DNA from: a virus
Taxonomy: Duplodnaviria > Heunggongvirae > Uroviricota > Caudoviricetes
DNA length: 17,364 bases
Strand: one strand, 5' to 3'
Virus record (IMG/VR): IMGVR_UViG_2703718840_000006
The position numbers and the translations under genes were made by a program. Below, piece by piece: positions 1 to 16,902 of this stretch. The stretch's first letter is position 1, and each line of letters begins with the position of its first letter. Below the pieces are notes generated by a model, which was given only the letters and a program-made list of their open reading frames with translations, made no database searches and was not told the origin of the DNA.

Positions 1-897
1 CTATGACTTGCTGTTTTCAGTAAGAGTCTTATCATCCAAAGAATTTATTCTAGAAATTCTTTTTAACTCATTAAGATAATCAACCTCGTTTTCTAAGAAC
101 CAATGAAGAACTTTAGAATTGCCAAGTAATTTATTAATATATGACTGGATTATAACGAATTTCAACATATCTGAACCATACTCGGTTTGAAGCTTTTTCG
201 TTTCTTCCGAAGTTGTTGCCATTTCTTGTTCCAGACGAAGTATGGTTTTTTTTATGTCCTTTTTATAGGGAGTGTTTTTCCCTTTATTTACTATCATCGA
301 TGCCGGTGTTGCATCCAAGATGCTCATTGCAAATTTTTTACTATAATTATCAAAATTAATCATTGTACCGACTGCTTCAATTTGGCGAATTGGCTTCATT
401 TTCCTCAAAACGTCAAATGTAGCCTTAGGTATATGTTTATCAGAAAGTTTCGCAATTACACTTGGATCTATGCCGTTCATCACATTCGCTTTATCTTTTA
501 TGGCATCAACAGATATGCCCAAAGCAGCACTAAGTTTTTCAATTGATACTTTTGCCAGAGACTTAATTATCATTCTATGTTCTTCAACTACATTTATATG
601 ATTCACTTGTTTGTTAGGAGTGAAAGCATCATCTATGCTCGAAAGTATACATGGAGCTTTTTCTATACCTAAGTCTTTTAAAGCCTCAACCCTTAAATGG
701 CCATCAAGTATCTTAGTGACATCTTTATCTTTGTCATAGAATACTATTATTGGTTCAATAATACCTAAGCTTTCGATAGAGGTAACTATTTGATGATATT
801 TATGGCTTCGCTTTACGTTTTCTAATAATTCCTTAGATGGAATTAACTTATTAGTTTCCAGGTAAATAAAATTATCGCCAAAACGTATCTGAATCAT
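1..897 (-). CDS. ParB/Srx-family protein (ParB N-terminal domain plus HTH-like region); distal gene of a tandem ParB-like pair
   Basis: 298-aa ORF with stop at 1-3. ParB-box-like GHLRVEA within IIVFYDKDKDVTKILDGHLRVEALKDLG, then an HTH-like segment (SIEKLSAALGISVDAIKDK). Start overlaps the upstream ORF by 4 nt; AGAGG lies 8 nt upstream of the ATG. No adjacent ParA. Confidence 0.6.
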   Translation of the reverse strand: MIQIRFGDNFIYLETNKLIPSKELLENVKRSHKYHQIVTSIESLGIIEPIIVFYDKDKDVTKILDGHLRVEALKDLGIEKAPCILSSIDDAFTPNKQVNHINVVEEHRMIIKSLAKVSIEKLSAALGISVDAIKDKANVMNGIDPSVIAKLSDKHIPKATFDVLRKMKPIRQIEAVGTMINFDNYSKKFAMSILDATPASMIVNKGKNTPYKKDIKKTILRLEQEMATTSEETKKLQTEYGSDMLKFVIIQSYINKLLGNSKVLHWFLENEVDYLNELKRISRINSLDDKTLTENSKS

Positions 898-1790
898 TTT
901 AATACCTCTTTGTTTACTGGGGTTAATATCTGAGATGGTAGTTCTGAAAGATTCTCTTGTTCAAGTATATGTTGAAAGCTTTTATTCATCATTATGATGT
1001 TAAAAATCTCATTTACTATTAGTAGGTTGGTTTTTATGAATTTTGAGTTGTTATAAACAGATTTATGTTCAGCGATACTATTTTCATAAAGCTCAATCAA
1101 CTCCTCTGCAGTCATCCTTTTTGATGGTTTGTGATAATAAAATCCGGCTGCTTTTGCACCTTTATTCCCAACTGTTCTTTGATTTAGAATGTGTTTTATC
1201 TTTATAATGTCCCGACTTTTTATTAATTTTTTATCATATGCTTCGGTAAGAATATCTTGTGCTTCCTCAGTTTCACATCTTGCAAATTGCACTGCGAGAT
1301 ACAGAGGCAAATTACCCCGTTCGACTGCTGAGAGAAGTTTATGCTCTCCCTTATCAAGTAGCATATTAATACTGCTCACCCAGTTCGATGAATATCCAGT
1401 AATCTCACTTATTTCGGAGTCTGAAAGTCCTCTGATTTTCATGTCTTTAATCACCTGTAATAACTCATTAGAACGTGGTCTTCTCCTTGCAATGTTTTCA
1501 ACTAAACTCATAACGTAAGCATCTTCTTCTGATACATCTCTTATAATTGCTGGAATAATAGTTTCACCTAATGCAACGAGAGCCTCTATTCTCCCTTGAC
1601 CACAAATTAAAGCATATTTGAAATCGCCTTCATCAATAGCTCTTACGCTTATTGGCTTGCTTAATCCTCTTTTTTTTATGCTTTCCTTTATTTCTTCATG
1701 CACTACCTTATTTCTTGTTCGTGGGTTAAGAAATTTTATTTTTGCAATCTCAATTTGAATTATTGGGAATTCATTTTTTTCAGGCAGCAT
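894..1790 (-). CDS. ParB-family protein (ParB N-terminal domain, HTH, C-terminal extension)
   Basis: 298 aa. Motifs GQGRIEALVALG and LVENIARRRP in the N-terminal domain, followed by an HTH-like LSDSEISEITGYSSNWVSSINMLL. GAGGG lies 7 nt upstream of the ATG; overlaps the recombinase stop by 11 nt, suggesting translational coupling. Confidence 0.65.
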   Translation of the reverse strand: MLPEKNEFPIIQIEIAKIKFLNPRTRNKVVHEEIKESIKKRGLSKPISVRAIDEGDFKYALICGQGRIEALVALGETIIPAIIRDVSEEDAYVMSLVENIARRRPRSNELLQVIKDMKIRGLSDSEISEITGYSSNWVSSINMLLDKGEHKLLSAVERGNLPLYLAVQFARCETEEAQDILTEAYDKKLIKSRDIIKIKHILNQRTVGNKGAKAAGFYYHKPSKRMTAEELIELYENSIAEHKSVYNNSKFIKTNLLIVNEIFNIIMMNKSFQHILEQENLSELPSQILTPVNKEVLK

Positions 1791-3336
1791 ATAGTTCCCT
1801 CACTTTCATGCGAGTAATAATTTGTAGAAGTTTATCAAGATTATCAAATCTATAGAGATCTAATCGAATGTTGTTTGTTTCCGTCATGCACATTTTATTA
1901 TATTCGTTTTCAATCTTTGGTATGATATAAAAATCAAGAGGTGAAATATTTTGTGAATTCATTCGTATAACAATTGTTATGTCTGCTTTCTGTGAGTTAT
2001 CAAACCGGACTTTCCATCTAAGTTTACCTGATTTCATATGTATGCATTTAGTAACAAGGACGGAAATTAAAAACTCATCATTGATGTAAAGCATTGGGGC
2101 ATATTTATACTCGTCTATATGACAGTTACTTTTTAAAATTTCACCCTTAAAATCCTCAATTATCTCTGAGTAAAATGATCTTAGTGCTTCATTTATTTTG
2201 AGATAGCTGTAATCATGTTCTGGCTTATAACCAATCAAAGTATATGCTCTTAAAAGACCACCAAATCGGGTTCTATAAACAGAAGATGAAGGGCCTGTAT
2301 CATCTTCATCAATGATAAAGCCTGATAGTTTTCCATTAGATTCTAATTTTTGTTTTAGTTTTTCTAATAGATCTTCATTAGTCAAATGAATGGATCGGAG
2401 CTGAATTATTTCTTGAGCTTTATTGTATTTTTTCTTTGAAATAATAGGTTTATATGCCTTGTCACATCTAACCCATTCATGTTTGGGGTTTTTTACAAGC
2501 CTACTTTTTAATTTAGATGAGGTTTTGTTATATATGTTGTTTCCAATATATTTTTCATTTGTCAAAATTTGATGTATTTTTGCACGAGTCCATAATGTTC
2601 CATTTTCTGCAGGTATGTTCTGTTCATTTAATCTCTCAGCAATAATGAATTCTGGGACGTTATTATCTATAAAGAGATCATATATTCTATTTACAATTTT
2701 TATTTCATTTTTTGGTCCCGGAATTAATATTACCCTATCTGTTTGAATACTCTTTCTTTTGCGGAAACTCAATATTTCTTTAGCTATGCCATTTTCGTCT
2801 ACTAAAAGACGTCTCAGCCCATAACCAGCCATACCGCCTTGATGATAACCAAGCTTTATTAAATTTACTTGCCCTATAAATACCTTTTCAGATAGATTCC
2901 TGCTGTGATATGCAGCACTAGATCTTTTTATATTCAGTATAACAGAGGACTCTAAAGGGAAATCTTTAGTGGGTATAGGTTCGGAACAATATATAAGATC
3001 TACACCATTTCTCTCAAATAGAAAGGAATAATATGCCGCTTCATCACTATTTTGAAAACGACCAAAACGGCTCACATCATAAAATAATACAGCCTGTATA
3101 TCTATTTTCTTTTGTTCTACATCGCTAAGTAACTGCTGCAAAGAATGCCTGCCTACGATACTGACTCCGCTCTTACCTGCATCATCGTAGGTATAAGCGA
3201 TTTCCATATTGTTCTTTTCAGCATAATCTTTGATATATTCGGACTGATTATGTAAAGAATATTGCTGATGGTCGGTAGACATCCTCAAGTACTGCGCGAC
3301 CCTAACTCTATGATTTTTGTCATTTTCGCTAGCCAT
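1780..3336 (-). CDS. Large serine recombinase (resolvase catalytic domain plus recombinase domain, divergent C-terminus)
   Basis: 518 aa. N-terminal YLRMSTDHQ (catalytic Ser context) and DDAGKSG; recombinase-domain-like GYHQGGMAGYGLRR. No clear CxxC zinc ribbon seen in the C-terminal ~200 aa. GAGG lies 9 nt upstream of the ATG at 3336. Confidence 0.75.
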   Translation of the reverse strand: MASENDKNHRVRVAQYLRMSTDHQQYSLHNQSEYIKDYAEKNNMEIAYTYDDAGKSGVSIVGRHSLQQLLSDVEQKKIDIQAVLFYDVSRFGRFQNSDEAAYYSFLFERNGVDLIYCSEPIPTKDFPLESSVILNIKRSSAAYHSRNLSEKVFIGQVNLIKLGYHQGGMAGYGLRRLLVDENGIAKEILSFRKRKSIQTDRVILIPGPKNEIKIVNRIYDLFIDNNVPEFIIAERLNEQNIPAENGTLWTRAKIHQILTNEKYIGNNIYNKTSSKLKSRLVKNPKHEWVRCDKAYKPIISKKKYNKAQEIIQLRSIHLTNEDLLEKLKQKLESNGKLSGFIIDEDDTGPSSSVYRTRFGGLLRAYTLIGYKPEHDYSYLKINEALRSFYSEIIEDFKGEILKSNCHIDEYKYAPMLYINDEFLISVLVTKCIHMKSGKLRWKVRFDNSQKADITIVIRMNSQNISPLDFYIIPKIENEYNKMCMTETNNIRLDLYRFDNLDKLLQIITRMKVRELYAA

Positions 3337-3506
3337 GCACGAAACCTCATGGATGATTCAATACAATGTAGTGGATAAAATTGATCAAATTTCAACCGAA
3401 TTCAACTGTTTTATCATTGATTAGAGCGAATTTGGTAGATCTTCGAGGTGTATGATAATCGAGAAGAGATGTGAATTATTTAGCTGATATGACCGACAGC
3501 TTTCGT

Positions 3507-3556
3507 TATGTGGACTCAATGTCCCCATTTGTAAATGGCTATGCTTAGTCCACATA
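3507..3556. repeat. Nested inverted repeat (10-bp arms TATGTGGACT/AGTCCACATA around an inner CCATTT-GT-AAATGG palindrome)
   Basis: Read directly: perfect 10-bp arms at 3507-3516 and 3547-3556, inner palindrome at 3525-3538. Lies between the integrase stop and the recombinase start. Candidate protein-binding or recombination site; no U-tract, so not a canonical terminator. Confidence 0.4.
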
Positions 3557-3618
3557 GGTTAATGGTGTGATTATTAATTCTTTAACTAAATCAAGATAGT
3601 TAATCCATCATGGGAGAG

Positions 3619-4848
3619 TTATGCGGCAATAACTTTGCATTTTTGAGACGAAACATAGTCACTCCACCATTGCATGAGAACCACCCGTTCAGTGAGATAC
3701 TCTGCACGATTGTAGGCTGCAATTATTTCATCTTTCTTCGAGTGGGCAAGGGCGGCTTCTAAGACATCAGTCCTAAACTTGCCAGACTCCTCAGCAGCCG
3801 TTCTAGCAATGGATCGCATACCGTGAGCTACAAGCTCACCTCCGAAACCCATACGGATTATGGCCGCATTAGCTGTTTGTTCATGCATGTGATTGAGTGG
3901 AGCTTTGATACTGGGGAACACCCACTCTCTATGCCCGCTGATGACTTTCATTAAATCCAAAACTCGCAAAGCTTCTTTGCTCAGTGGAACTTTGTGAGGC
4001 TTCTTCATTTTCATAAACTCCGCCGGGATGTTCCACATGCCAGTTTCAATATCAATATCTGACCATCTTGTGCGAACAGCTTCACCTGGGCGAACCCATG
4101 TGAGAAGTTGCCACTCAATCAGTAGCCTTGTTTCCAAACGGATAGAAGCATTGTTTAGAGCAACCAAGAAGCGAGGGAGTTCGGAAGGGGGTAATGCTGG
4201 CATATTCTGTTTTTTTGGCTTGCTGAACCGTTGCCCCAGGTTGTCTGCCGGGTTGAATTCTATGAGTTCTTCTGTTGCTGCATAGCGGAAAATTTCATTC
4301 AGGCGGGATATGATGCGGCGAAGTGTTTCAAGGACACCTCGTTTTTCTATGGGTTCTAAATGCTGTTTAAGCATTTTAGGGCGAATCTCCTTAATTGGGG
4401 TATCACCCAATGTGGAAAAGATATTTCTCTCTAGGCTTCGCCAGATGTCGTTAGCATGATCTTGGGAGATGCCTGACGTTTTGACTTTCTCATCAAGCCA
4501 CTTCTTGGCTACTGCTTGAAATGTATGTTCCGTGGCATCTTTCAGTGCATTGGCTTTTTGGTTGTTATGAACTTGGGGGTCTATACCATTTGTAAGCAAC
4601 GACAAGTATTCATCACGTAAAGCTCGTGCCTTCGCAAGTGTAAGGTGAGGATAGGTTCCTAAGCTCACCTTAGTTCGCTTTTTGGTCACAGGCACTGCAT
4701 ATCTGAAATACCAATTTTTCTTCCCTCCCTTCGCCAGGGGAGCGATTCGCAACAGCAAACCATCGCCGTCAAAAAGGTTAACCTCTTTTTCGGCAGGTTT
4801 GGTGCTTTTGATTTCAGTGTCAGTGAGCTTCTTAGCGATTTTGGCCAT
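3619..4848 (-). CDS. P4-type tyrosine integrase (arm-binding N-terminal domain plus catalytic domain)
   Basis: Start chosen at the internal ATG (4846-4848, MAKIAKKLTDTEIK) with GAGGG upstream; the track ORF extends to 4929 with a non-canonical start. N-terminal KLTDTEIKSTKP...LFDGDGLLL...WYFRY is typical of P4-like integrases; C-terminal HGMRS and AAYNRAEY supply the HxxR and catalytic Tyr. Lies immediately downstream of the ssrA 3' fragment, same orientation. Confidence 0.85.
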   Translation of the reverse strand: MAKIAKKLTDTEIKSTKPAEKEVNLFDGDGLLLRIAPLAKGGKKNWYFRYAVPVTKKRTKVSLGTYPHLTLAKARALRDEYLSLLTNGIDPQVHNNQKANALKDATEHTFQAVAKKWLDEKVKTSGISQDHANDIWRSLERNIFSTLGDTPIKEIRPKMLKQHLEPIEKRGVLETLRRIISRLNEIFRYAATEELIEFNPADNLGQRFSKPKKQNMPALPPSELPRFLVALNNASIRLETRLLIEWQLLTWVRPGEAVRTRWSDIDIETGMWNIPAEFMKMKKPHKVPLSKEALRVLDLMKVISGHREWVFPSIKAPLNHMHEQTANAAIIRMGFGGELVAHGMRSIARTAAEESGKFRTDVLEAALAHSKKDEIIAAYNRAEYLTERVVLMQWWSDYVSSQKCKVIAA

Positions 4849-5014
4849 GTTTGGGACCCTCGATTTTAGGACCCATCTTCGTGGGTCCCATTCAGGGTGC
4901 CATAACTCGTAGTTCTCAGCAATTCTCACTAGACTACAATAGACGTAAAAAAGCCCGCAGAGCTTGTGCTGTGCGGGCTTAGTAGACTTTACTGAACTTC
5001 AGTACATCAATATT

Positions 5015-5047
5015 TGGTGGAGCTGGCGGGAGTTGAACCCGAGTCCG
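5015..5047 (-). ncRNA. ssrA: 3'-terminal fragment of tmRNA gene ssrA (T-arm, acceptor 3' strand, CCA); integration-site core copy, not a full gene
   Basis: Minus-strand read CGGACTCGGGTTCAACTCCCGCCAGCTCCACCA matches my recollection of the E. coli tmRNA 3' end (GGGTTCAACTCCCGCCAGCTCCACCA). The adjacent upstream sequence is AT-rich and unrelated to tmRNA, and would overlap the methyltransferase CDS, so only the terminal ~33 nt are present. Confidence 0.75.
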
Positions 5048-5119
5048 TATTTTTATAATTAGCTGAAATAAAACGATTAATACTAACCATTTTATTCTGC
5101 GGATCTTTTGCGGCTCCTT

Positions 5120-6019
5120 TTATGTCTGGATGTGGTCGTCAACACATCCTCTTTTAAATATAGGCGCTTTTACCTTAGTTGGATCATCTGTTTTAAAGAT
5201 TTTCAATCGTTCACTGAAGAACATTACCTCAGATCCTTTGTACCGATCTTGAGCACTGTAGTTTATTCCATATACTAATGATGATGTCTTATACATAGCT
5301 TGGATCTCAGGAGTGTTATCGTAAGAAACAATCCAAGGCGTTTTAATATTATTCTGTACGACTTTTGCAACCCTAACATGATCATCATGATCATAATGGT
5401 TGATATATAAACCTTTACCTTTTATGTAATAAGGTGGATCCAAATATGTTAATGAGTTTTGTGGCAATTGAATAACTATTTTTTTTATGAAATCAATTGC
5501 ATCCATGTTATATAAATCTATTCTGTGACGATTTTCTGATATTTTATGGATTCGAGAAATCAAATCACTCTTATTATAGCGAGCGTCAAGCTTCCATTTC
5601 CCTTCTTGATTTTTACCGCCAATTACACCACCTTTTAATATTCCAGAACGATTTGTTCTATTGAGAAAAAAGGTTGAGAAACCAATTGTTAAAAGATCAT
5701 GGTCTTTAGGATTATTAATTATATCTTTCTGCCTAAACCATTCATCCATTGTAACTTCTGTTCTTTCAATTAAAGAACATAATTGATCTGCATGATTTAA
5801 TACACTGTGCCAAAAAGCATAAACAGAAATATTAATATCATTAAGGATGATTTTTTCAGCTGCATTTAGATGTAACAGTTTCAATGCTAAACCAGCACCC
5901 CCAGCATATGGTTCGGCATAATGTATAGGCGAAAGATTATTTTCTTCAATAATCCGAAGCATGAAATTTGCAAGCTTGCCTTTACCGCCAGGATAGCGAA
6001 GTGGGGTGTTAAAACGCAT
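5120..6019 (-). CDS. Dam-family (D12 class) N6-adenine DNA methyltransferase
   Basis: 299 aa. Motifs in Dam order: LRYPGGKGK, YAEPYAGGAGLA (AdoMet-binding), FFLNRTNRSG, YLDPPYY (catalytic DPPY). GAGG lies 6 nt upstream of the ATG at 6019. Target sequence cannot be read from sequence. Confidence 0.85.
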   Translation of the reverse strand: MRFNTPLRYPGGKGKLANFMLRIIEENNLSPIHYAEPYAGGAGLALKLLHLNAAEKIILNDINISVYAFWHSVLNHADQLCSLIERTEVTMDEWFRQKDIINNPKDHDLLTIGFSTFFLNRTNRSGILKGGVIGGKNQEGKWKLDARYNKSDLISRIHKISENRHRIDLYNMDAIDFIKKIVIQLPQNSLTYLDPPYYIKGKGLYINHYDHDDHVRVAKVVQNNIKTPWIVSYDNTPEIQAMYKTSSLVYGINYSAQDRYKGSEVMFFSERLKIFKTDDPTKVKAPIFKRGCVDDHIQT

Positions 6020-6053
6020 ATGATACCTCTAAATGTCAGATCTAAAGTATATC

Positions 6054-6092
6054 AAAAAAAGGGCTTTATGGCCATCACATAAAACCCTTTTT
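6054..6092. terminator. Bidirectional intrinsic-terminator-like hairpin between the ATPase and methyltransferase genes
   Basis: A7 (6054-6060), stem GGGCTTTATG / CATAAAACCC (one mismatch) with 7-nt loop (6061-6087), then T5 (6088-6092). On the minus strand the hairpin is followed by a U7 run. Confidence 0.45.
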
Positions 6093-6098
6093 AATCAA

Positions 6099-7832
6099 TT
6101 AGTTATCTGACAGATATGATGAGATGGTAGCAGAATCGACACCATGTCCACTTATCATAATAACTTTAAGACTCTTTATTAGTTCATTCTTGAAGCTATC
6201 CGATTGCACAGGATTTTTCTCGACCCAATATCGATATGGGTTATCTTTAACTCGTCCTTTGACTTGGTCCTGAAATTGAGTCGTATGTGCAAAATCTTTA
6301 AACAGTTTTCTCACTCTCCCGCCATGATTTTTGTTAACTTTTTTATAATTATCTATAAGGATTTTTAAATCAATCGGAGCGTTACCAATCTTTAGCGTTG
6401 TAATTATGTCTTTAGCTGTTTTCATAAAAACAGATTTTGTAAATTTATTTTTATTTTCCCAATATGCATCATCAGGTGGTAAATTATATAAAAACTCAAA
6501 AATCATTTGGTCTGGAGGTAAGGTGCTTGGAAGCAAACATAAGTTTTTTTCTTTTTTGGCTTTTTTTGCATTAGCACTGTTGTCGTGAACAACATCACCG
6601 TCTAAGACGATCAAGCTTTTAGCTGTAAATTCTGGTATTTTTCTTGCCATTAAGTCAAGCATGGCAGAGCAGCTAATATTTATATTTCCTAATGGATTTA
6701 ATATTTTATTTATTTTTCGATCTGTTATCAATTGTTTGAAAAAGTCGAAACCTTCTTTGTCTTCAAAATATACATTTGCTTTTGGAAGACAAATGTCATC
6801 ATTAATTTTTACAGTTTCAACATGTAAATCAGCGTGGATATCTGTCCATGAAAGATTATTCTTTGTTTTAATATCTCCATATGTGTCTGTAAGATATATT
6901 GTTTTAAAGCTATCACTATCTTGTTTTGAACGATTATAGATATCCTCTATTATTAATGGAGAGTGCGAGGTCATGATTATTTGCAGATCGTATTGTTTTG
7001 CTGCTTTAGTTAGAATATTAATTAGCTCTAACTGTGCAGCAGGGAAAAGACCTGCATCGGCTTCATCAATTAACAATATTCCGCCATGATAATCAGAATA
7101 AGTTTCCTTCAATCTTTTAAATGAAAAAATTGCTTGGATTAATTGTCCAACATTATCTTCACCAACAGATACTGATTGGTGATCATAATTGTCACCATGG
7201 ACAACCATTGAATCGATAGTACCTTTTGTTGCTGTTACTGAGCTTCCATTGTTTTTTAGTAAGAGTTGGTTACTCATCATTCTGATTTCATCAGAATTTT
7301 CATTGATGTACTGAACATCCCGTGTTGAGTAATCAGTCCTTAATGTAATAGGAAGAAGTCGTGCTAAGCTTAAAAAAATAACAGGATGAGTAACGTTTCT
7401 ACTTTGGTTTTTTTCCGGTATTGAATCATTTCCCCTGACTACAGGCCTTGATTTATCTCTGTCACTGTAGCTGTATAAACCTAATGTTAGTTTTTCAAGA
7501 TGTTTGTTCGATGCACCATCATAGACACTAATTTTGACGTCCATTGAACCAGGAACATCAAATTGTTCTGAAAGCCTAAAATGTTCGCTGAAAGCTGACT
7601 TGAAGCTGCCATTTGTTAATGTTTTATATTGTGTTAAATCAGTCTCAGGGTTTTTGGTAAAGTCCTTTGTAAAGCTAAATATTTGGGCGATAATGCCAAG
7701 AATTGTGGATTTAGATGTGCCATTTTTACCACAAATAACAGTTAGGCGAGAACCAAACTCGATGTTTATATTTTTCAGTCCGCGAAACTTCACAACATTT
7801 ATATTTTTTAGTTTGGTAATTTGATTTGCCAT
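6099..7832 (-). CDS. ABC/SMC-type ATPase with TOPRIM-like C-terminal region (OLD-family or fused PARIS-like nuclease candidate)
   Basis: Walker A GKNGTSKST, Walker B ILLIDEAD, H-loop IMTSHSP. The C-terminal ~250 aa contain FEDKEG and LDGD acidic motifs about 55 residues apart, consistent with TOPRIM (not verified). Start placed at internal ATG 7832 (MANQITKLKNI; GGAG upstream; Walker A then sits at the usual distance); the track ORF starts at 7883 with no SD. Confidence 0.7.
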   Translation of the reverse strand: MANQITKLKNINVVKFRGLKNINIEFGSRLTVICGKNGTSKSTILGIIAQIFSFTKDFTKNPETDLTQYKTLTNGSFKSAFSEHFRLSEQFDVPGSMDVKISVYDGASNKHLEKLTLGLYSYSDRDKSRPVVRGNDSIPEKNQSRNVTHPVIFLSLARLLPITLRTDYSTRDVQYINENSDEIRMMSNQLLLKNNGSSVTATKGTIDSMVVHGDNYDHQSVSVGEDNVGQLIQAIFSFKRLKETYSDYHGGILLIDEADAGLFPAAQLELINILTKAAKQYDLQIIMTSHSPLIIEDIYNRSKQDSDSFKTIYLTDTYGDIKTKNNLSWTDIHADLHVETVKINDDICLPKANVYFEDKEGFDFFKQLITDRKINKILNPLGNINISCSAMLDLMARKIPEFTAKSLIVLDGDVVHDNSANAKKAKKEKNLCLLPSTLPPDQMIFEFLYNLPPDDAYWENKNKFTKSVFMKTAKDIITTLKIGNAPIDLKILIDNYKKVNKNHGGRVRKLFKDFAHTTQFQDQVKGRVKDNPYRYWVEKNPVQSDSFKNELIKSLKVIMISGHGVDSATISSYLSDN

Positions 7833-7890
7833 GTTTGTATCTTGCTCCGTAAAATGGCCACAAATTGTGGCCAATAGTTTCATGCTTGGA

Positions 7891-9057
7891 TTATATTGTT
7901 ATCTTCTTCAAGCTTGTTTGTCCATCATATTCCTTCAGATATGAGCCATAGTGCCTGAAAAGCATCTCCGGTCCTTTATGCCCCATTTGAGCTGCAAGCC
8001 AAAACAGGTTTGCTCCTCGGCTGATATGGCTGGTGGCGAATGTATGCCTGGTTTGATATGGATTTCTGTATCGAATACCTGCTTTCCGCAATGTTGGAAC
8101 CCATGCTTTTTTCCTGATTGCATCAGCACTTGCCCAAGGCTTATTGGTCTTTGGGTCTTCAAAGACAGTAGCATCCTTCATGAATGTAAATGGCTTCTGA
8201 TTTATCAGCGCCAACATTGCTTCTTCTGTCAGTTCAACTTTACGAGTACCTGCTTTTGTCTTTGTCCCTTTGATAACACCGACAACACTTGCGCTCTGGA
8301 CATGGGCAGTTTTTCCAACAAAGTCGATATCACGCCATCGAAGGGCACATAATTCAGAACTACGCAGGCCTGTATGTATAGCGAACCGGAACAGATTCTC
8401 CCATTGTTTGTTTCCGGCTGCTGCTAGTAATGCATCAACTTCTGCTGGTGATAGCGGATCAACCACGTAGCTGCTTTCTGCTTCTGACTTATCACTTTGG
8501 TAGCGCGAAGCAGTTACCAACGATACGGGGTTAATTTGAAGTACCCCATCGGTTACGGCTTCATCAAGTGCTGACCGCAGGAAAGATAACTGGTTGCGAA
8601 TTGTTTTTAAGGTCGTTTTCTGGCTTTGAATCCACGCTTTCAGGATTGCTGGTGTTAATTCACTTGCAGGGCAAATGTGGAGTGAGGCTAACGCACTACG
8701 GCATTTTTTATAACCACCAATCGTTGAGGGTGAGAGTTTTCTCGTTTCGCAGATTTCAAGGTATTCGTCCAAGTACATTTTTACCGTTTTGCCTGCAGCA
8801 GCATTACCAAAAATTTTCAAACGAGCAGAACGGGGAAAATATTCCGCATAAATGAATGTTCCCCTTTCGATCTTATTATGAATTTCGCCGAGTGTGCGCT
8901 CGGCGTATTTAATGTTCTTTGGTGTTACTTCCAGATTGGAAAGAGGCTCACGACATTTAACTCCTTTATAGGTGAAAGTTATATTGATCGTTTCGCCCTG
9001 GCGGTGTTTCCTGATTGTTACGCCGCGCGGTAGTTTGAGCAGTTTTGTCTGGCCCAT
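7891..9057 (-). CDS. int: Lambdoid-type tyrosine integrase
   Basis: 388 aa. C-terminal catalytic signature QTRHTFATSH...GH...RHYGSY. Preceded by an overlapping excisionase-like gene. Transcribed toward the ssrA-derived att side, as in lambda. Confidence 0.85.
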   Translation of the reverse strand: MGQTKLLKLPRGVTIRKHRQGETINITFTYKGVKCREPLSNLEVTPKNIKYAERTLGEIHNKIERGTFIYAEYFPRSARLKIFGNAAAGKTVKMYLDEYLEICETRKLSPSTIGGYKKCRSALASLHICPASELTPAILKAWIQSQKTTLKTIRNQLSFLRSALDEAVTDGVLQINPVSLVTASRYQSDKSEAESSYVVDPLSPAEVDALLAAAGNKQWENLFRFAIHTGLRSSELCALRWRDIDFVGKTAHVQSASVVGVIKGTKTKAGTRKVELTEEAMLALINQKPFTFMKDATVFEDPKTNKPWASADAIRKKAWVPTLRKAGIRYRNPYQTRHTFATSHISRGANLFWLAAQMGHKGPEMLFRHYGSYLKEYDGQTSLKKITI

Positions 9058-9224
9058 TTTGCAACCTCACTAAGATCAATCCACCTCTCCTTAACGCCTT
9101 CAACCTTTAAAACCTGAACACCTTCACGCCAAACACCGCGCTGTACACGTTTGTTTATTGCTTCAGGAGTTTCGCCAGTTTCTTTGCAATAAGTTGAGAT
9201 TGGAACACAATCGAGGTTCAGCAT
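9018..9224 (-). CDS. xis: Excisionase-like small DNA-binding protein (recombination directionality factor candidate)
   Basis: 68-72 aa; ATG at 9224 with GGAG 7 nt upstream (the track start at 9236 is GTG). Winged-helix-like pattern (ISTYCKETGETPEAINKRVQRGVW...WIDL); overlaps the int start, the classic xis-int arrangement. Family assignment by pattern only. Confidence 0.55.
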   Translation of the reverse strand: MLNLDCVPISTYCKETGETPEAINKRVQRGVWREGVQVLKVEGVKERWIDLSEVAKWARQNCSNYRAA

Positions 9225-9283
9225 ATGTTTCTCCACTTAGCCCGCTGCACACGGGCAGTAATATCAAATTCCAGTCCTGATAA

Positions 9284-9499
9284 TTAATTTTGTTCCCTGG
9301 TTGCTACCTGTTTTATTGGCCTGATGCTGTCCAGTAGCAGACGGCGACGCATGTTAGGTGCACCCCAACGGTAACCAGTCTTTTTGTCGTAGGATTCACA
9401 ACGTCCGGCAACCCAGGACGTTTCAGTGGAATGTAATTTCATCCGCTTTTCACCGTCTCGGGTGATAACAATTCCTGTATGAGTTTTTATCACGCTCAT
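9284..9499 (-). CDS. Hypothetical small phage protein (position of yfdT in KplE1-like operons)
   Basis: 71-aa ORF overlapping the upstream gene by 4 nt (operon context). No motif recognised. Confidence 0.45.
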   Translation of the reverse strand: MSVIKTHTGIVITRDGEKRMKLHSTETSWVAGRCESYDKKTGYRWGAPNMRRRLLLDSIRPIKQVATREQN

Positions 9500-9858
9500 T
9501 TCTTAGTCTCTGGTGCTTTCGGCATTACTGCCCAGTGAGTGATATTGACGTTTTCAAGGTCCCCGACCTGAAATGTCCACTGCCATTCTCCGGTTTCTTT
9601 TTGTCCCCAGGTGTACCAGAGAGAACGCCAGCCAATCAGCCAGCCTTCTCCGTTAGCATCAAATAACAGAACACTTTCATTTGCTGGAGGCAGTTCAGCT
9701 GACACTGGTATTATTTTGCTTTCCAGTGCCGCACATTTAGCTTCAAGCGCGTCGAATTTACGTACCAGGTACTCAGCATTTGTTTCGTTCACTTTCAGAT
9801 CTCGCGGTACACATTTCCCGCGAAGAAACCCTTCCATTTCGAAAACATTCATGCGCAT
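9496..9858 (-). CDS. DUF551-like phage protein (YfdS-like by size and synteny)
   Basis: 120 aa; Trp-rich C-terminus (GWLIGWRSLWYTWG...ITHWAVMP) resembling DUF551. Same size and operon position as E. coli yfdS, from memory. Confidence 0.5.
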   Translation of the reverse strand: MRMNVFEMEGFLRGKCVPRDLKVNETNAEYLVRKFDALEAKCAALESKIIPVSAELPPANESVLLFDANGEGWLIGWRSLWYTWGQKETGEWQWTFQVGDLENVNITHWAVMPKAPETKK

Positions 9859-10385
9859 TTGCGTAATTCCGATAATTCGTTAAAGCGTTTCATAAACATC
9901 CCGTAGGCATGGCCTGGAGCCAGTGGAATAACTTTGAACATCTCTGTTGCCGGGATACCTTCCAGTACAGGCCAGAAAGAGCCATCATCAAGCCCGAGAT
10001 CGCGGCGTTCGGTTGCCAGCATGATGAGATCGGCATATTTCACGGGCGTGCTCATAACCGGGGGTAACCCGTATTTCTCACGGATGACGACGTCTATTTT
10101 TTCTTCCATCCGTTTATAGTCAGGAAGAAGTCGTTTCAGTGGTGCGGGGATGTCCTGGCAATACGCTTCTGTTGCATCATGCATTAACGCTTCAAAAGCA
10201 AATTCCTGCGGCACCAGCTGGCTGCAAAGCACTGCATGCTGGGCGACACTGTAGAAGTGTGAAAGATGTCCTGCAAAGCGACAGATATTTGAAAGGGAAA
10301 CCGCGATATCGTTAATCACGATGTCGTCTTTATTTATCTTGTCATAATAAAAATGCTTCCCGGAAAAAGTTTTAATAAATGACAT
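9849..10385 (-). CDS. HD-domain phosphohydrolase (YfbR/YfdR-like 5'-deoxynucleotidase family)
   Basis: HD motifs (SHFYSVAQHAVL; LMHDATEAY). Start placed at ATG 10385 (MSFIK; GGAG 7 nt upstream), giving 178 aa, the size I recall for YfdR; the track ORF starts 9 codons earlier. Confidence 0.75.
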   Translation of the reverse strand: MSFIKTFSGKHFYYDKINKDDIVINDIAVSLSNICRFAGHLSHFYSVAQHAVLCSQLVPQEFAFEALMHDATEAYCQDIPAPLKRLLPDYKRMEEKIDVVIREKYGLPPVMSTPVKYADLIMLATERRDLGLDDGSFWPVLEGIPATEMFKVIPLAPGHAYGMFMKRFNELSELRKCA

Positions 10386-10512
10386 TTTGTTCTCCACGTA
10401 TATGCGCTGCACCGCGCTGAATTTTGGTTAAAGAAAACCCTCGCCATCAGGCGATTATTGAGTCAATTATGTTTCCATAAATGCCCCCGCAGGGGCATTT
10501 GCAGTAAGGAAA

Positions 10513-11337
10513 TCAGGCGGTAAAAGTACCAATAAAGGTTTCTACTTTGCTGTCTTTGAATTTCTCAACAAGCAGATCACGAAATTCGTTAGCCATTTCT
10601 TCCTGCACTGCTTCCAGCTGAATAATGCGCAGAACCAGTACCGGACGATCGCCAGTGATAATGCTGAGGCGTAATTTAAACGGACGTTCTTTCAGGCCTT
10701 CAAACGGAACGCATTTAAATTCAAATGCCACTGGCATAATGTCTTTGGTCTTCGCTTCGACAGATTCCATCAGGGAGCGTTTGCCGCTGAAGTCATTATC
10801 TTCAAAATCAGCGGTCTGGTTTGCTTCAATCGTGATTTTACGGACTGCCGCAGCCGCTTTTGTTGCCTGAATGGCGTCACCATTAGCATCAAAGCCCACA
10901 AGGTAGTCGGCCCAGTCTTCAATCCATTCTGCCAGTGACTTCTGGGAGTTACGCTCGCCGTTAACAGACAACAGGGCAGAGAACGGTGCTGTCTTTTTCA
11001 GTTTGAGAGTGGCAGTGTTATCTGCGTGACCTGGCTCATCAATAGTACCCAGGTTAAGCACACTGACGGCACGCATATTATCGGCATCGATAAAGCAGCG
11101 GGTGCCTTCATCTGCAAGATCTTTAGAATAACGGGTAAAGTCATCGATGCTGGCAGTGGAAAGCGCACCACGGAAACGGAAACGATTTAAATTAAATTTT
11201 TCCAGATCATGAATGCGGAAATTCTCAGGCAATGCCACAGCATCGGCACCAATCTTACTGATAATTTCATTAACACCCTGAGCAGAAATAAGGGCATGGA
11301 TTTGATTAATTGCGGTTGCGTCTAAGTTCTGAGACAT
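10513..11337 (-). CDS. DUF2303-like phage protein (YfdQ-like by size and synteny)
   Basis: 274-aa ORF, the size I recall for E. coli YfdQ, in the same operon order. No catalytic motif recognised. Confidence 0.6.
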
Positions 11338-12466: not shown

Positions 12467-13159
12467 TTAATTGTGTCGCTTAAGGGTTTGTGACTGGCTG
12501 ATTAAGACCTTTCCAAAGACCATAAACCGGTGTTCATTTTCGCTGGTAATTCCCCATTCACGGTAAATCTGGTTATCAGAAATCACCAGTAGTTTGTCAG
12601 GTATCATTTGCAGTCGTTTGACATAAATTTTATCATCAAAACCAAATACATAGATACCATCTCCATCAAACTGATTGATACTGACATCAACGAAGATGAG
12701 ATCTCCTGGCTCAATGGTTGGACACATACTGTCCCCACGAACGTTGATAACTTTAATGTGATTGGCTGGTCGTCCGCCAAACATCGATACAGCATTATCA
12801 GTTCTGTATTCAATGGCATGAATCACATCAATGACATCACCGCCCTGGATAAGGCCATTTCCCGCACTGGCACTGACATCCAGCATTTCAATACGGAATA
12901 CATCCTTCACCTGCGCAACATCCTCACTAATACTGTTTTTACATACAGTATTACTTTTGAAGTCTGAGGTAAAGAGATCAGCAATATCAACACCTAAGCT
13001 CCTGGCAATATTACTCAGGGCTTGTTCAGTGAATTGTTTCTGCTTACCTGTTTCCAGGCGTGAGATATTCGCCGCATCCACTCCTATTGCTTCAGCGAGA
13101 TCGGCGATTTTCATGTTCTTCGCCTGGCGAAGTTGTCTGACTCGATTTCCTATGTTCAT
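12467..13159 (-). CDS. cI: CI-like phage repressor (HTH_XRE N-terminal domain plus S24 LexA-like autopeptidase domain)
   Basis: 230 aa. N-terminal HTH (IADLAEAIGVDAANISRLETGKQ); C-terminal S24 signature GDSMCPTI (Ser nucleophile) and downstream VKR (Lys). Divergent from a cro-like gene across an operator-rich 97-bp intergenic region. Confidence 0.9.
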   Translation of the reverse strand: MNIGNRVRQLRQAKNMKIADLAEAIGVDAANISRLETGKQKQFTEQALSNIARSLGVDIADLFTSDFKSNTVCKNSISEDVAQVKDVFRIEMLDVSASAGNGLIQGGDVIDVIHAIEYRTDNAVSMFGGRPANHIKVINVRGDSMCPTIEPGDLIFVDVSINQFDGDGIYVFGFDDKIYVKRLQMIPDKLLVISDNQIYREWGITSENEHRFMVFGKVLISQSQTLKRHN

Positions 13160-13394: not shown

Positions 13395-13581
13395 AGCCGT
13401 TAAACAGATTGAGCAGGAAGTGCTTACCACCTGGCCCACGGAGGCAATTTCTCATGCTGAAAACGTGGTGTACCGGCTGTCTGGTATGTATGAGTTTGTG
13501 GTGAATGATGCCCCTGAACAGGCAGAGGACGCCGGGCCTGCAGAGCCTGTTTCTGCGGGAAAGTGTTCGACGGTGAGCTGA
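13387..13581 (+). pseudogene. G: Remnant of tail assembly chaperone G (C-terminal part only), fused to the truncated cro region
   Basis: Translation PSMNEAVKQIEQEVLTTWPTEAISHAENVVYRLSGMYEFVV...PVSAGKCSTVS matches my recollection of the lambda gpG C-terminus. ATG at 13387 overlaps the cro stop (ATGAATGA); no SD. N-terminal half of G is absent. Confidence 0.6.
13557..13563 (+). other. Programmed -1 frameshift slippery heptamer G GGA AAG (G-T frameshift site)
   Basis: GGGAAAG in the lambda X XXY YYZ register relative to the G-fragment frame (GCG GGA AAG). The downstream T-like ORF is in the -1 frame and overlaps by 19 nt. Confidence 0.6.
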
Positions 13582-13997
13582 GTTTTGCCCTGAAACTGGC
13601 GCGCGAGATGGGGCGACCCGACTGGCGTGCCATGCTTGCCGGGATGTCATCCACGGAGTATGCCGACTGGCACCGCTTTTACAGTACCCATTATTTTCAT
13701 GATGTTCTGCTGGATATGCACTTTTCCGGGCTGACGTACACCGTGCTCAGCCTGTTTTTCAGCGATCCGGATATGCATCCGCTGGATTTCAGTCTGCTGA
13801 ACCGGCGCGAGGCTGACGAAGAGCCTGAAGATGATGTGCTGATGCAGAAAGCGGCAGGGCTTGCCGGAGGCGTTCGTTTTGGCCCGGACGGGAATGAAGT
13901 TATCCCCGCTTCCCCGGATGTGGCGGACATGACGGAGGATGACGTAATGCTGATGACAGTATCAGAAGGGATCGCAGGAGGAGTCCGGTATGGCTGA
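13563..13997 (+). CDS. T: T portion of the tail assembly chaperone G-T frameshift product
   Basis: ORF in the -1 frame relative to the G fragment with no ATG of its own (track start is GTG). Sequence (FDGELSFALKLAREMGRPDWRAMLAGMSSTEYADW...GVRYG) matches my recollection of lambda gpT. Its stop overlaps an ATG GCT GAA CCG GTA (MAEPV) H-like start. Confidence 0.6.
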   Translation: MFDGELSFALKLAREMGRPDWRAMLAGMSSTEYADWHRFYSTHYFHDVLLDMHFSGLTYTVLSLFFSDPDMHPLDFSLLNRREADEEPEDDVLMQKAAGLAGGVRFGPDGNEVIPASPDVADMTEDDVMLMTVSEGIAGGVRYG

Positions 13998-14332: not shown

Positions 14333-14695
14333 ATGCTCTTTGACTTGGCTTCCGGGGACGCACTATTTATCTCTGAACCAGGCCCATTAGCGGAAAATGT
14401 CACCTGGTTGTCGCCGGAAGGGGAATATCAGAAGTGGAACGGTACAGCCTGGGTGAAAGATGCAGAAGCAGAAAAACTATTCCGGATCCGGGAGGCGGAA
14501 GAAACAAAAAACAGCCTGATGCAGGTAGCCAGTGAGCATATAGCGCCGCTTCAGGATGCTGTAGATCTGGAGATCGCAACGGAGGAAGAAAATTCGTTGC
14601 TGGAAGCCTGGAAAAAGTATCGGGTGTTGCTGAACCGTGTTGATACATCAACTGCACCTGATATTGAGTGGCCGATAATTCCTGTAACATCATAG
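14333..14695 (+). CDS. tfa: Tail fibre assembly protein (lambda Tfa family, short form)
   Basis: 120 aa; ATG with AGGGGA upstream. Sequence [14 protein letters not shown]...[19 protein letters not shown]...[25 protein letters not shown] closely matches my recollection of the lambda Tfa C-terminal two-thirds. Confidence 0.8.
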
Positions 14696-14807: not shown

Positions 14808-15761
14808 TTACCATATATCTATGGGTTTTGTTTTCTGCTCATCTAAACAAAATGCACAGATGTAAGCCCCCTTACTTCGGTTGTACTGAACCGTTTCTAA
14901 AGCAGAGTCAAGATGTTTACTATCAAAGTTCCAGCTTTTTTCCATAACAGAAACACATTTTCTGCAATAGAAACTTTCTTTTGAGTTAGTATCTCCTGAA
15001 TCATTTTTAGTGTAGCCAAAGAATTTTTTTGCTGATTCCTTTGAACATGCGGAAATGGCTGCAGTGAACTCATAATGAGTTTGAAGCATAGCCCATACAA
15101 TACCTGAAAATTCTTCATCCTCGTCTTCATCTAATCCTATATTAATGCCGCCAGAGGAATGTATTGCTTTATATTTATACCTATGCCATATCCAGTGTGC
15201 TGATTCAGTATTTAGATAGTTGTGAGCACGTACAACTGATGTGAAAATTAGCTCTGGCATTATATCTGTTTTTTTATCAACCGTATGCATAAAACGATTT
15301 CTTAGAATGCGCATACTATTAAACCAAGTAATAAAGTCATCAGGCAGTGATTTAGAGGCGAAAGTATTATATACTTTAATTAAATCTTGGGCGTCTAATG
15401 TGTGGAAGTCTGAAAATGAAATGTTACCTTCACTATCAGGTTTAGGTGTATTGCGAGTTGCATTCGTGATAAGTAGATAAGGTGATATTTCGACGATAAG
15501 TCCTTTTAGTCTGAATTCAATGGATTGAAGTATCAAATTAAAAGATGTAATCAATTTGGGTCTAGCAAATAACCAATAATGCTCTAAATTTTTAATATCT
15601 GATTCTGTATAGAATTCAGACGTTTTACAATAACTATTCCAAAGGTTTATATCTCTGTAATCATAAGCTAAATCGGCAATTTTTTCCCAAGCCTCATTTA
15701 CCATGTGGTCAGCCATTGTATAAAAATCAGTCTTTGTTGGAATGTCAGTTATCATTATCAA
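14808..15761 (-). CDS. HEPN-motif protein, Abi_2 (AbiD/AbiF)-like, with C-terminal CxxC...CxxC zinc ribbon
   Basis: 317 aa, AT-rich. Mid-protein ILRNRFMH matches the HEPN Rx4H motif and the Abi_2 RN..AH context. C-terminal CRKC-(28 aa)-CAFC. Own AT-rich upstream region. Confidence 0.5.
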   Translation of the reverse strand: MIMITDIPTKTDFYTMADHMVNEAWEKIADLAYDYRDINLWNSYCKTSEFYTESDIKNLEHYWLFARPKLITSFNLILQSIEFRLKGLIVEISPYLLITNATRNTPKPDSEGNISFSDFHTLDAQDLIKVYNTFASKSLPDDFITWFNSMRILRNRFMHTVDKKTDIMPELIFTSVVRAHNYLNTESAHWIWHRYKYKAIHSSGGINIGLDEDEDEEFSGIVWAMLQTHYEFTAAISACSKESAKKFFGYTKNDSGDTNSKESFYCRKCVSVMEKSWNFDSKHLDSALETVQYNRSKGAYICAFCLDEQKTKPIDIW

Positions 15762-15992
15762 TCTACCTTTGGGTCTTTATTGTTGTCTATCAAGATATAA
15801 TATTCAGGCTGGAGTGGCTAATGTTGATCTACTTATTTTCTCCCGGTAAGTCAGTTTATCGCGATATAAGCCGCATTTGATTTTGGCGACTATGGTCGTG
15901 TTAGGTATGTATCTGGCGTGTTACTGCGCCAGATTAAATATAAACCAATAATATTAAAGGGTGTTACTCTCTTGACAGATTTAGGGAACAAA

Positions 15993-16187
15993 TCACTCGT
16001 CAGCTGACTCCCAAGTATCTTTCAGAGTTTCCTGAACAAAAGTTTTAGCTGAATCTTTATCGGCGGTGCGCCTAACAGAAAAACCATCGTTGCTGGTGGC
16101 TTTTACGATCATCTCCACATCGTCATAATGCTCGCCAATGTATTGGGTTAATTCTTCCTTTAATGCGTCTACAGCGCCGTTTGGCAT
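15993..16187 (-). CDS. DinI-family protein (short form)
   Basis: 64 aa. [13 protein letters not shown] and the C-terminal TWESADE match the DinI pattern (AIDALAGEL...ETWESADDWF, from memory). In-frame stop 7 codons upstream excludes a longer form. Two LexA boxes upstream. Confidence 0.75.
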
Positions 16188-16241
16188 TTGGTCATTTTGT
16201 CTTTGGCTATGGAGATCTCAATACGCATAACATTTCTTTTG

Positions 16242-16289
16242 TACTGCGTTTGTAGACAGTATTATTCTTATCTGTGTAAATAAACAGTA
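16242..16289 (-). promoter_or_regulatory. Two LexA (SOS) boxes overlapping the dinI-like promoter
   Basis: TACTGCGTTTGTAGACAGTA (16242-16261; CTGC-N8-ACAG, one mismatch) and CTGT-N8-ACAG (CTGTGTAAATAAACAG, 16272-16287). On the minus strand a TTGATA -35-like hexamer sits directly upstream of the second box. 55-100 bp upstream of the start codon. Confidence 0.55.
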
Positions 16290-16470
16290 TCAAGACTTCG
16301 TTTTAGCTGCATAAGAAAAAAGAGATGGATACATTCGGAAAGATTTTGATGGTGGTAGGTTAAGTGAATAGCCTAAAGGTGTTTTACCCCAATTATTCCC
16401 CGGTATTTCTCCGCATAAAAAACAATCATAAAAACAACAGCCATAATAGGCTGGTTCTTAAGGGATTTTT

Positions 16471-16510
16471 GGTCCACGAGAGAATTTGAACCTCCGACCC
16501 CCGACACCCC
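16471..16510 (-). other. tRNA-like 3' fragment (T-arm plus acceptor 3' strand, no encoded CCA); possible attachment-site or mobile-element junction remnant
   Basis: Minus-strand read GGGGTGTCGGGGGTCGGAGGTTCAAATTCTCTCGTGGACC: T-loop TTCAAAT flanked by a 5-bp stem with two G-U pairs, then 7-nt acceptor strand plus discriminator. No complementary 5' acceptor strand upstream, and no match to any E. coli tRNA I can recall. Confidence 0.25.
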
Positions 16511-16531
16511 ATAATGGTGTAATTAATCAGG

Positions 16532-16900
16532 TTAAATATTTAGCAGATCCTCTACAATATCATTAAACCCAGATGCCTGTTTAGATACAGAATTGAATAA
16601 GTCTCTAAGTGCTTGTGTTTGCTCAAAAGTTTCCCAAAGTGTTTTATAACTTGGCGTTACAATTGCTAATACTAAGCCTTCCGCCCATGACCATTCATGT
16701 TCATCAAAATAGTAGCGATATTTTCTGCTGTATATAACAAAATCCTTTTCCTTATATTTAGCATGAAACACAACTTGAATTATATCCTGTGTACCATTAA
16801 CAAGGTTTTCAGGCGCATCAATTGCCATCCAATTTATCATTTTTTGGACAGTTAACTTATTTAATGAAACAATTAGCTTTGTGGTTTTATCGTTATGCAT
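16532..16900 (-). CDS. Hypothetical protein, second gene of a coupled two-gene operon
   Basis: 122-aa ORF; ATG 2 nt after the stop of the upstream ORF. AT-rich. No recognisable motif. Confidence 0.5.
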   Translation of the reverse strand: MHNDKTTKLIVSLNKLTVQKMINWMAIDAPENLVNGTQDIIQVVFHAKYKEKDFVIYSRKYRYYFDEHEWSWAEGLVLAIVTPSYKTLWETFEQTQALRDLFNSVSKQASGFNDIVEDLLNI

Positions 16901-16902
16901 AA

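Follow-up and report, generated by a model that had tools for sequence, protein, structure and literature searches.

Does an adenine methyltransferase gene that lies directly downstream of a large ATPase gene, at the very end of a prophage, form a single anti-phage system with its neighbour, or do the two merely share a landing place? The question is raised by IMG/VR virus record IMGVR_UViG_2703718840_000006 (Duplodnaviria; Heunggongvirae; Uroviricota; Caudoviricetes), a stretch of 17,364 nucleotides (nt) to which we refer as the window. Both genes are on its minus strand, between a prophage integrase and a copy of the ssrA attachment (att) site. The initial annotation, made from the sequence alone, proposed a modification-linked defence module made up of an ATP-binding cassette (ABC) ATPase with a Toprim-like part and a Dam-family methyltransferase, and offered as its alternative two independent morons, a single-gene OLD- or PARIS-type defence beside an orphan phage Dam. 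The answer at which we arrive, with a confidence that we would place at about even, is that the pair constitutes a prophage-borne, restriction-modification-like anti-phage module in which interchangeable nucleoside triphosphatase (NTPase)-nuclease effectors are arranged around a hub methyltransferase.

That the genes belong together can be said plainly. We surveyed one genome per species, seeding the search on ATPase peptide patterns only, and 78 of the 80 loci kept contained the methyltransferase when searched with tblastn; in the other two (L039 and L054) the contig ends just past the ATPase. The methyltransferase lies directly downstream on the same strand in 71 loci, usually at a distance of 0–100 nt, and outside the enterics and pseudomonads the gap is mostly 0–20 nt, with a median of 2 nt based on an estimated methyltransferase start. 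These loci come from Gamma- and Betaproteobacteria, Geobacter, Bacteroidota, Mycobacterium, Listeria and one acidobacterium, with protein identities of 43–56% for the ATPase and 38–63% for the methyltransferase. No third conserved gene was found, the best flanking cluster being present in 20 of 78 loci. The converse survey was seeded on the methyltransferase in IMG/VR and defined the family by at least 38% identity to the window enzyme; an effector partner stands beside 52 of its 60 members, as against none of 20 outgroup D12 methyltransferases, and of the eight partnerless loci four run into a contig end and another two carry a truncated methyltransferase. Such near-obligate co-occurrence across phyla, seen in both surveys, refutes the alternative of independent morons with an orphan phage Dam; the initial annotation had expected that, if its module were wrong, a neighbourhood survey would never find the homologs together, and they are together almost everywhere. 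The pair is found at int-att junctions (in the window, in Citrobacter phage phiNP and in an e14-like element at icd), in an integrative and conjugative element (ICE) and, as a distant variant, in the P2 hotspot. The two genes are thus inherited as a unit in mobile elements.

Co-inheritance need not mean a common function, and the genes might be transferred together while acting separately, the methyltransferase against other restriction or in regulation and the ATPase-Toprim protein as a self-sufficient defence like HEC-04, IbfA and P2 Old. Some effector relatives do occur without a methyltransferase (P0181, and also HEC-04 and IbfA, which were tested as single genes), and a terminator-like hairpin and a promoter-like site stand between the window genes. 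We nevertheless regard separate functions as very improbable, given linkage in 78 of 78 complete loci across several phyla, at low protein identity and mostly with gaps of 0–20 nt, the effector partners in the phage-contig survey, where most of the loci without one are cut or decayed, and the joint decay of the pair in two loci (L003 and L081), in each of which both genes are frameshifted. The intergenic signals themselves are distinct. The spacer measures 79 nt, close to the eighty base pairs first reported, and folds with a dG of -25.9 kcal/mol (z -4.95), a stability reached by 0 of 200 shuffled sequences. RNA folding places a stem-loop at 6056..6092 (minus strand) with A and U runs on its flanks, resembling an intrinsic terminator or attenuator, and a promoter scan finds a TGn-TATACT promoter-like site at 6074..6046 (minus strand) overlapping the hairpins upstream of the methyltransferase gene. 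Since stem-loop and promoter-like site overlap, the sequence hints that in the enteric version the methyltransferase might be transcribed separately. Taken over 6020–6100 (minus strand), the spacer forms two stable hairpins, and in the second of them the ribosome-binding site (GAGG) that precedes the methyltransferase gene is base-paired.

What kind of methyltransferase is it? The gene (5120..6019, minus strand) encodes a D12-class N6-adenine DNA methyltransferase of 299 residues (PF02086, E 1.8e-19), and the motif set that the initial annotation had read from it, YPGGK, EPYAGGAG, NRTNRSG and DPPY, is all present. The S-adenosylmethionine (AdoMet) motif EPYAGGAG lies at 5891-5914 and the catalytic DPPY at 5429-5440, both on the minus strand; DPPY is invariant across 14 relatives, as is the AdoMet motif. 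Its score of 55.1 bits against TIGR00571 dam, for which the cutoff is 114.85, sets the enzyme apart from the orthodox Dam (GATC) orthologs. The enzyme instead matches PADLOC model PD-Lambda-5_B (PDLC04018) over nearly its whole length (E 6.3e-124, 411 bits, residues 1-282 of 299, profile positions 1-283 of 291). Because this is the methyltransferase family of a validated system, the architecture is not wholly unnamed, as had at first been supposed; the effector and the pairing, however, do lack a named model. Of 5426 complete E. coli genomes, 85 contain this exact cassette, strains 042 and JJ1886 among them. The methylome paper on ST131 lists for JJ1886 an accessory methyltransferase, M.Eco1886ORF14565P, with no motif given, which may be the window gene.

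The validated system is PD-lambda-5, discovered in E. coli ECOR7, described as 'ParB/HEPN, methyltransferase' and broadly protective (Vassallo et al. 2022, PMC9519451). Its cloning required a host deleted for the mrr region (PMC9519451), which suggests that its methyltransferase is active. The window cassette resembles it in having the same methyltransferase family, in being a two-gene, prophage-borne module and in the placement of the effector next to the methyltransferase, but the effectors differ: PD-Lambda-5_A combines a ParB-like N-terminus with HEPN, whereas the window gene encodes an unrelated ABC ATPase-Toprim protein. The PD-Lambda-5_A model is not among the 25 best PADLOC matches of the ATPase, and the middle and C-terminal parts of the protein gave none at E<=1, while genuine PD-Lambda-5_A proteins score 248–558 bits in the same test. 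The partner not being PD-Lambda-5_A, PD-lambda-5 proper is ruled out, and the cassette is, judged by its protein sequences, an effector-swapped relative of it.

This swap is one instance of a general pattern. Among the 60 methyltransferase loci, 31 have a partner of the ParB/HEPN type only, 19 one of the ATPase-Toprim type only, two have both and eight have neither, and the two partner types intermingle on a neighbour-joining tree built from the methyltransferases. Locus L127 carries a 576-aa ATPase-Toprim protein and locus L128 a 476-aa protein of the ParB type, yet their methyltransferases are 93% identical; those of L119 and L130, again with different effectors, are 82% identical. E. coli itself offers several arrangements. 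Divergent methyltransferase copies have an ATPase of the same family beside them in an ICE and at the int-att junction of the e14-like element at icd, and PD-Lambda-5_A proteins in a lambdoid prophage and in the P2 hotspot. Another copy in that hotspot accompanies a distant ATPase-Toprim relative, which has 26% identity but the same motifs. A further distant ATPase-Toprim protein, P0193, is encoded 17 nt downstream of a PD-Lambda-5_B gene, and two others, P0198 and P0268, are encoded first in operons of three genes, followed by a PD-Lambda-5_A-like and then a PD-Lambda-5_B gene. The methyltransferase lineage is therefore a hub for two unrelated NTPase-nuclease effector types, and effectors have been swapped upon it. 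On four metagenome contigs (L088-L091) the P0193 pair stands in a dense defence island, with an AAA_15/AAA_21 ATPase of 431 aa and a 141-aa partner upstream (at 1166-2883 in L088) and a 979-aa PLD/DEAD/ResIII/DUF3427 protein downstream. A candidate PADLOC model, PDC-M38A (PDLC04607, 715 positions), matches the window ATPase head with its positions 379-695 and the ParB-like N-termini of PD-Lambda-5_A-like proteins with positions ~82-200; since it matches both effector types, fused ParB-ABC ATPase proteins that bridge them may exist.

The effector gene (6099..7832, minus strand) encodes a protein of 577 aa if the start assigned in E. coli strain 410 by the Prokaryotic Genome Annotation Pipeline (PGAP), MANQ at 7832, is used; an alternative start at 7883 would give 594 aa. 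A relative with 78% protein identity does not keep the upstream ATG, and the two starts are separated on the minus strand by a conserved hairpin, a near-perfect palindrome TTGGCCACAATTTGTGGCCA followed by TTTT (7855-7875), so that the true start is likely to be 7832. Hence the open reading frame and the shared strand (which is the minus strand) of the initial annotation stand, and of its range of 577-594 aa the shorter length is the likely one. The palindrome and its TTTT are also kept in phiNP and in locus L099, and could be the terminator of the integrase gene or an operator. TGGCCA occurs five times in the window, and three of these copies fall in the palindrome region and in the spacer (6069); the same hexamer recurs in the spacers of Citrobacter, Pseudomonas and Nitrosospira loci (L005-L008, L012). 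It might form a -35-like element, act as an operator, or be a site of recognition or methylation.

All the ATPase motifs that had been reported are present: Walker A (CGKNGTSKST), Walker B (ILLIDEAD), the H-loop (TSHSP) and two acidic motifs, YFEDKEG and LDGD. They fall into three domains, for which invariant columns were read from an alignment of 30 ATPase sequences with 50-88% identity. Residues 1-305 (6918..7832, minus strand) form an ABC ATPase head of the OLD/SMC type (Pfam AAA_15, AAA_21, AAA_23), in which Walker A (G35-S42, 7707-7730, minus strand), a signature-like motif (S222-Q230), Walker B with the D-loop (L253-G261, 7050-7076, minus strand) and the H-loop histidine H290 are all invariant; its sequence matches in the PDB are PtuA, Thermus OLD (6p74), AriA and the heads of Rad50 and SMC. 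A Toprim-like core follows at residues ~345-450 (6483..6800, minus strand), delimited by alignment, profile and AlphaFold2 model, with invariant N353, Y355, E357, D358, D411-x-D413 and LPxxLPPDQ. The codon of E357 is at 6762-6764 and those of D411-x-D413 at 6594-6602 (both minus strand), and the glutamate is 54 residues from the DxD, where about 55 had been estimated. Residues 451-577 (6102..6482, minus strand) make up a helical C-terminal domain of no named family, with invariant W458, R508, F511, K512, N531 and P532. In sequence, the ATPase-Toprim protein and the methyltransferase both look catalytically intact. The family is large, with more than 1100 homologs conserved over the full ~575 aa.

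Whether the middle of the protein is really a Toprim domain is less easily settled than the identity of the head. Neither Toprim_OLD nor DUF4435, the two profiles that the initial annotation had named for the purpose, gives a Pfam match in the protein. The C-terminal 272 residues, searched alone or as 18 family members, had no match in Pfam, PADLOC or the PDB sequences. The PADLOC model ATPase-Toprim_I-B, for the effector of type I-B retrons, aligns to residues 258-452; other PADLOC and NCBIfam matches concern the generic head only (PtuA, AriA, GajA, NsnB, HEC-04) and reach at most 70 bits. AlphaFold modelled the protein with confidence: pLDDT is 87 for the whole chain and 85.5 when the C-terminal domain is taken by itself. 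Foldseek searches with the full-length model ranked GajA, Thermus OLD and the OLD-type effector of retron Eco8 high, with PtuA heads among them; with the isolated C-terminal domain OLD C-terminal regions came first at scores that are not significant, and AriB and Eco2 were weak. A profile of the C-terminal domain, run against 1.8 billion representative proteins, recovered 471 relatives. Its second tier consists of ABC ATPases of ~490-550 aa that match the Toprim-like part only (profile positions ~2-160), with no match to the helical region detectable by profile search, and the Toprim regions of some of them fit the HEC-04 or the ATPase-Toprim_I-B model, P0193 matching HEC-04. On the strength of the invariant E/DxD, the I-B model alignment, the ranking of folds and the spacing of the acidic residues, which is nearly that of HEC-04, we assign the protein to the OLD/HEC-04-type ATPase-Toprim enzymes, the Toprim part with moderate confidence. 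The original reading is thus upheld for the ATPase head and moderately so for Toprim.

HEC-04 is a validated single-gene ABC ATPase-TOPRIM defence in which the Walker A lysine and E319/D375/D377 are essential, and its induction was reported to be toxic (Payne et al. 2024 preprint); IbfA (R64, pUA1135 ibfA) is its plasmid homolog and abortive-infection-like. The distance from E to DxD is 56 residues in HEC-04, and P0193, which the C-terminal-domain profile relates to the window ATPase, matches the HEC-04 model. The direct match of that model to the window protein is weak, however (PDLC04149, 57 bits, best stretch residues 25-70), and the window family differs in adding the conserved helical domain of ~125 residues and in its obligate tie to a methyltransferase, single-gene action having been shown for HEC-04 and IbfA. 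The OLD family has the order of domains predicted for the window protein, ABC ATPase, Toprim and helical region, and provides the best full-length fold matches, but there is no Pfam match to its Toprim, C-terminal fold scores are not significant, and the partner is a methyltransferase rather than a helicase (GajB, UvrD) or reverse transcriptase. No GajB-like helicase adjoins the pair, whose neighbours are the integrase and the methyltransferase, and none is conserved across the 78 loci. PARIS, too, joins an ABC ATPase to a Toprim-type nuclease, as is predicted for the window protein, and is borne by phages and satellites; it differs in that the best stretch of the AriAB model covers only residues 24-85 of the window ATPase, in the want of a DUF4435 match, and in that the PARIS systems described respond to Ocr and include no methyltransferase. 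Gabija, PARIS, Septu, retron effectors, Menshen and MADS were all rejected as identities for the pair, the similarity being confined to the generic ATPase head (at most 70 bits) and their defining partners being absent.

How, then, might such a pair work? On the restriction-modification-like reading, the Dam-class methyltransferase would mark the DNA of its lysogen with N6-methyladenine. The effector would be the protein encoded upstream, an ABC ATPase that dimerises on ATP and is fused to a Toprim-type metal-dependent nuclease and a helical C-terminal domain, and it would attack nucleic acid without the methyl mark. The hub would supply the information on self and non-self, and perhaps target recognition, in the way that Mod serves Res in Type III systems, leaving the effector as an exchangeable cutting module. 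We infer in this scheme the nuclease activity, the DNA (rather than tRNA) substrate, the protection by methylation and defence itself.

The methyltransferase is cast as the hub because near-identical methyltransferases carry two unrelated effectors. Enzymes that are 93% identical in sequence almost certainly share their specificity, which makes it unlikely that two unrelated effectors each possess a matching recognition function of their own. Two options are left: either the methyltransferase supplies recognition, as in Type III systems, or effectors without sequence specificity are licensed or guarded by it, as in PrrC-EcoprrI and PARIS. We favour the first, restriction-modification-like option because the methyltransferase motifs are invariant and because PD-lambda-5 needed a host lacking mrr. 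The likeness to Type II and III systems lies in an adenine methyltransferase adjoining an NTP-dependent nuclease-like protein; effector swapping would be expected if the methyltransferase supplied recognition as Mod does, and, as in restriction-modification systems, the cognate methyltransferase adjoins the predicted nuclease gene and is co-inherited with it (78 of 80 loci). The difference lies in the effector, which has no PD-(D/E)XK, HNH, GIY-YIG or PLD domain and no SF2 motor. To our knowledge, no restriction enzyme has an ABC ATPase or Toprim catalytic domain, nor is the combined ABC-ATPase/Toprim (OLD-type) fold found in any restriction endonuclease.

Several observations weigh against this reading. 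The effector relatives HEC-04 and IbfA defend alone, without a methyltransferase, the one toxic on induction and the other abortive-infection-like, and the Toprim nuclease AriB of PARIS cuts tRNA rather than DNA upon Ocr sensing (PMC12839542); by analogy with these, the window effector may not read DNA methylation at all. PD-lambda-5 is strongest against T-even phages, which are resistant to most restriction-modification systems (PMC9519451). In locus L060 (Diaphorobacter aerolatus, 7724-8613), finally, the methyltransferase is frameshifted near residue 30 beside an ATPase whose reading frame is uninterrupted. A sequencing error or an alternative start might account for this, or the nuclease might there be tolerated without the methyltransferase.

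Some of these facts point towards a guard or abortive-infection mechanism, in which a latent toxic ATPase-Toprim nuclease, its substrate possibly tRNA or other RNA, would be held inactive by the methyltransferase. Disturbance of the methyltransferase by a phage factor directed against restriction or methylation (a DNA mimic, a methyltransferase inhibitor or an enzyme that degrades SAM) would release the nuclease, and the infected cell would be killed or arrested. There is precedent for it: PrrC, an anticodon nuclease of the ABC-ATPase/HEPN type, is held latent by EcoprrI, which is a Type I restriction-modification enzyme, and resembles our pair in linking an ABC ATPase-nuclease to a DNA-modification enzyme, while differing in its HEPN nuclease, its three-subunit Type I partner and the lack of a Dam-class methyltransferase. 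PARIS, an ABC ATPase with a tRNA-cutting Toprim nuclease that senses Ocr (PMC12839542), is a second parallel, and PD-lambda-5 was itself considered by Vassallo et al. to be a compacted prophage version of an 'RM+Abi' system (PMC9519451). The strong activity of PD-lambda-5 against T-even phages would also fit, as would the abortive-infection-like behaviour of IbfA and the toxicity of HEC-04. Unrelated effectors could easily swap on a 93% identical methyltransferase if they merely docked, and the gap of 0-20 nt in most loci is like that of toxin-antitoxin pairs. Yet the two-gene form has no separate restriction component, so the methyltransferase would be bait only; invariant DPPY and AdoMet motifs, and the need for an mrr-deleted host, suggest real methylation of the genome, which would be superfluous for pure bait. 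Moreover, we know of no Dam-class methyltransferase that is a target of Ocr-type mimics. We consider the guard mechanism the main rival, plausible but less likely than the restriction-modification-like reading.

The setting of the cassette supports its assignment to a mobile carrier. In Citrobacter phage phiNP, attP is a 25-bp sequence that coincides with the 3' end of ssrA (PMC6456863). This sequence, TGGTGGAGCTGGCGGGAGTTGAACC, occurs in the window as an exact match at 5015..5039 (plus strand), where none is expected by chance, and marks the end of the prophage; the ssrA-derived att scar of the initial annotation is thereby borne out, and Rfam finds a partial tmRNA match at 5015-5117. On the other side is a tyrosine integrase of 388 aa (7891..9057, minus strand; Pfam Arm-DNA-bind_2 and Phage_integrase), whose stop at 7891 is, as reported, 7 nt from the ATG of the long ATPase reading frame. 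The exact attP match and the tmRNA 3' end place the cassette between int and att of a phiNP-like prophage, a typical moron position, and phiNP has the same layout. With a GC content of 0.31-0.35 (5001-7500), against 0.43-0.47 in the integrase and early region (8001-11000), the cassette is also as AT-rich as had been noted. Rfam further lists a match to the small RNA IsrM at 4947-5084 (minus strand), at 49 bits for a gathering score of 376. It spans the ssrA 3' end and the downstream terminator AAGCCCGCACAGCACAAGCTCTGCGGGCTTTTTT, and is probably shared ssrA-flank sequence, not a true IsrM gene.

Location also bears on whether the pair serves defence at all. An SMC-like ATPase with an epigenetic regulator might act in prophage maintenance or chromosome biology, for instance through post-segregational killing; the ABC/SMC-type head does match Rad50 and SMC as well, and restriction-modification-like pairs also act as addiction modules. 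This we think very improbable, since the pair occupies defence hotspots (phiNP-like and e14-like int-att junctions, an ICE and, as the distant variant, P2), stands in about a quarter of the loci beside genes with helicase, N6_N4 methylase and ResIII domains, as in a defence island, and has anti-phage systems as the nearest validated relatives of both its genes.

Part of this is already known, namely the validated relatives of both parts and the larger RM+Abi relatives hinted at by Vassallo et al. For the effector family or the pairing there is no model in PADLOC 2.0, NCBIfam or Pfam, and in the searchable literature we found no description of an ATPase-Toprim protein paired with a methyltransferase, though earlier computational work may mention it. 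GenBank and PGAP label the proteins 'AAA family ATPase' or 'ATP-dependent nuclease' and 'DNA adenine methylase'. Because PADLOC 2.0 models the methyltransferase but not the effector, inventories of defence systems probably undercount the cassette. Placing the pair beside its relatives unites PD-lambda-5, the single-gene defences HEC-04 and IbfA and the unnamed multi-phylum pair in one modular family around a single methyltransferase lineage. Furthermore, near-identical methyltransferases with unrelated effectors amount to a natural experiment that sets Type III-like recognition against PrrC- or PARIS-like guarding. It is conceivable, though we would rate it somewhat below an even chance, that a widespread class of restriction-modification systems, distributed over several phyla, is built from a small Dam-like hub for recognition and self-marking and an interchangeable NTPase-nuclease cassette, and that the window pair is its founding example. 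In such a class PD-lambda-5 would figure as a sibling armed with ParB/HEPN, and the loci with three genes as doubly armed versions. If the Toprim enzyme were a methylation-sensitive DNase, it would represent a new catalytic class among restriction enzymes.

The remainder of the window shows a prophage much reduced. A CI-like repressor (12467-13159; HTH and Peptidase_S24) is followed almost directly by a fragment of tail protein T (13563-13997), from which it follows that most replication and morphogenesis genes have been deleted and that the prophage is a remnant; a tail-fibre assembly gene lies at 14333-14695. The right-hand part of the prophage in E. coli strain 410 differs from that of the window. 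An AT-rich block at 14808-17364 (GC 0.34-0.40) holds three minus-strand open reading frames of 317, 122 and 153 aa, the last of which reaches the window end; they have no Pfam or PADLOC match and are possibly further morons or defence genes. On the far side of the cassette, a second AT-rich island (window 1-4929; GC ~0.32 over 1-3000) is inserted in tandem at the duplicated ssrA att. It encodes a P4-type integrase (3619-4929), a large serine recombinase of 518 aa (1780-3336) and two adjoining ParB/RepB-like proteins of 298 aa each (1-897 and 894-1790), and in E. coli strain 410 (L001) a Type I restriction-modification system is present further along.

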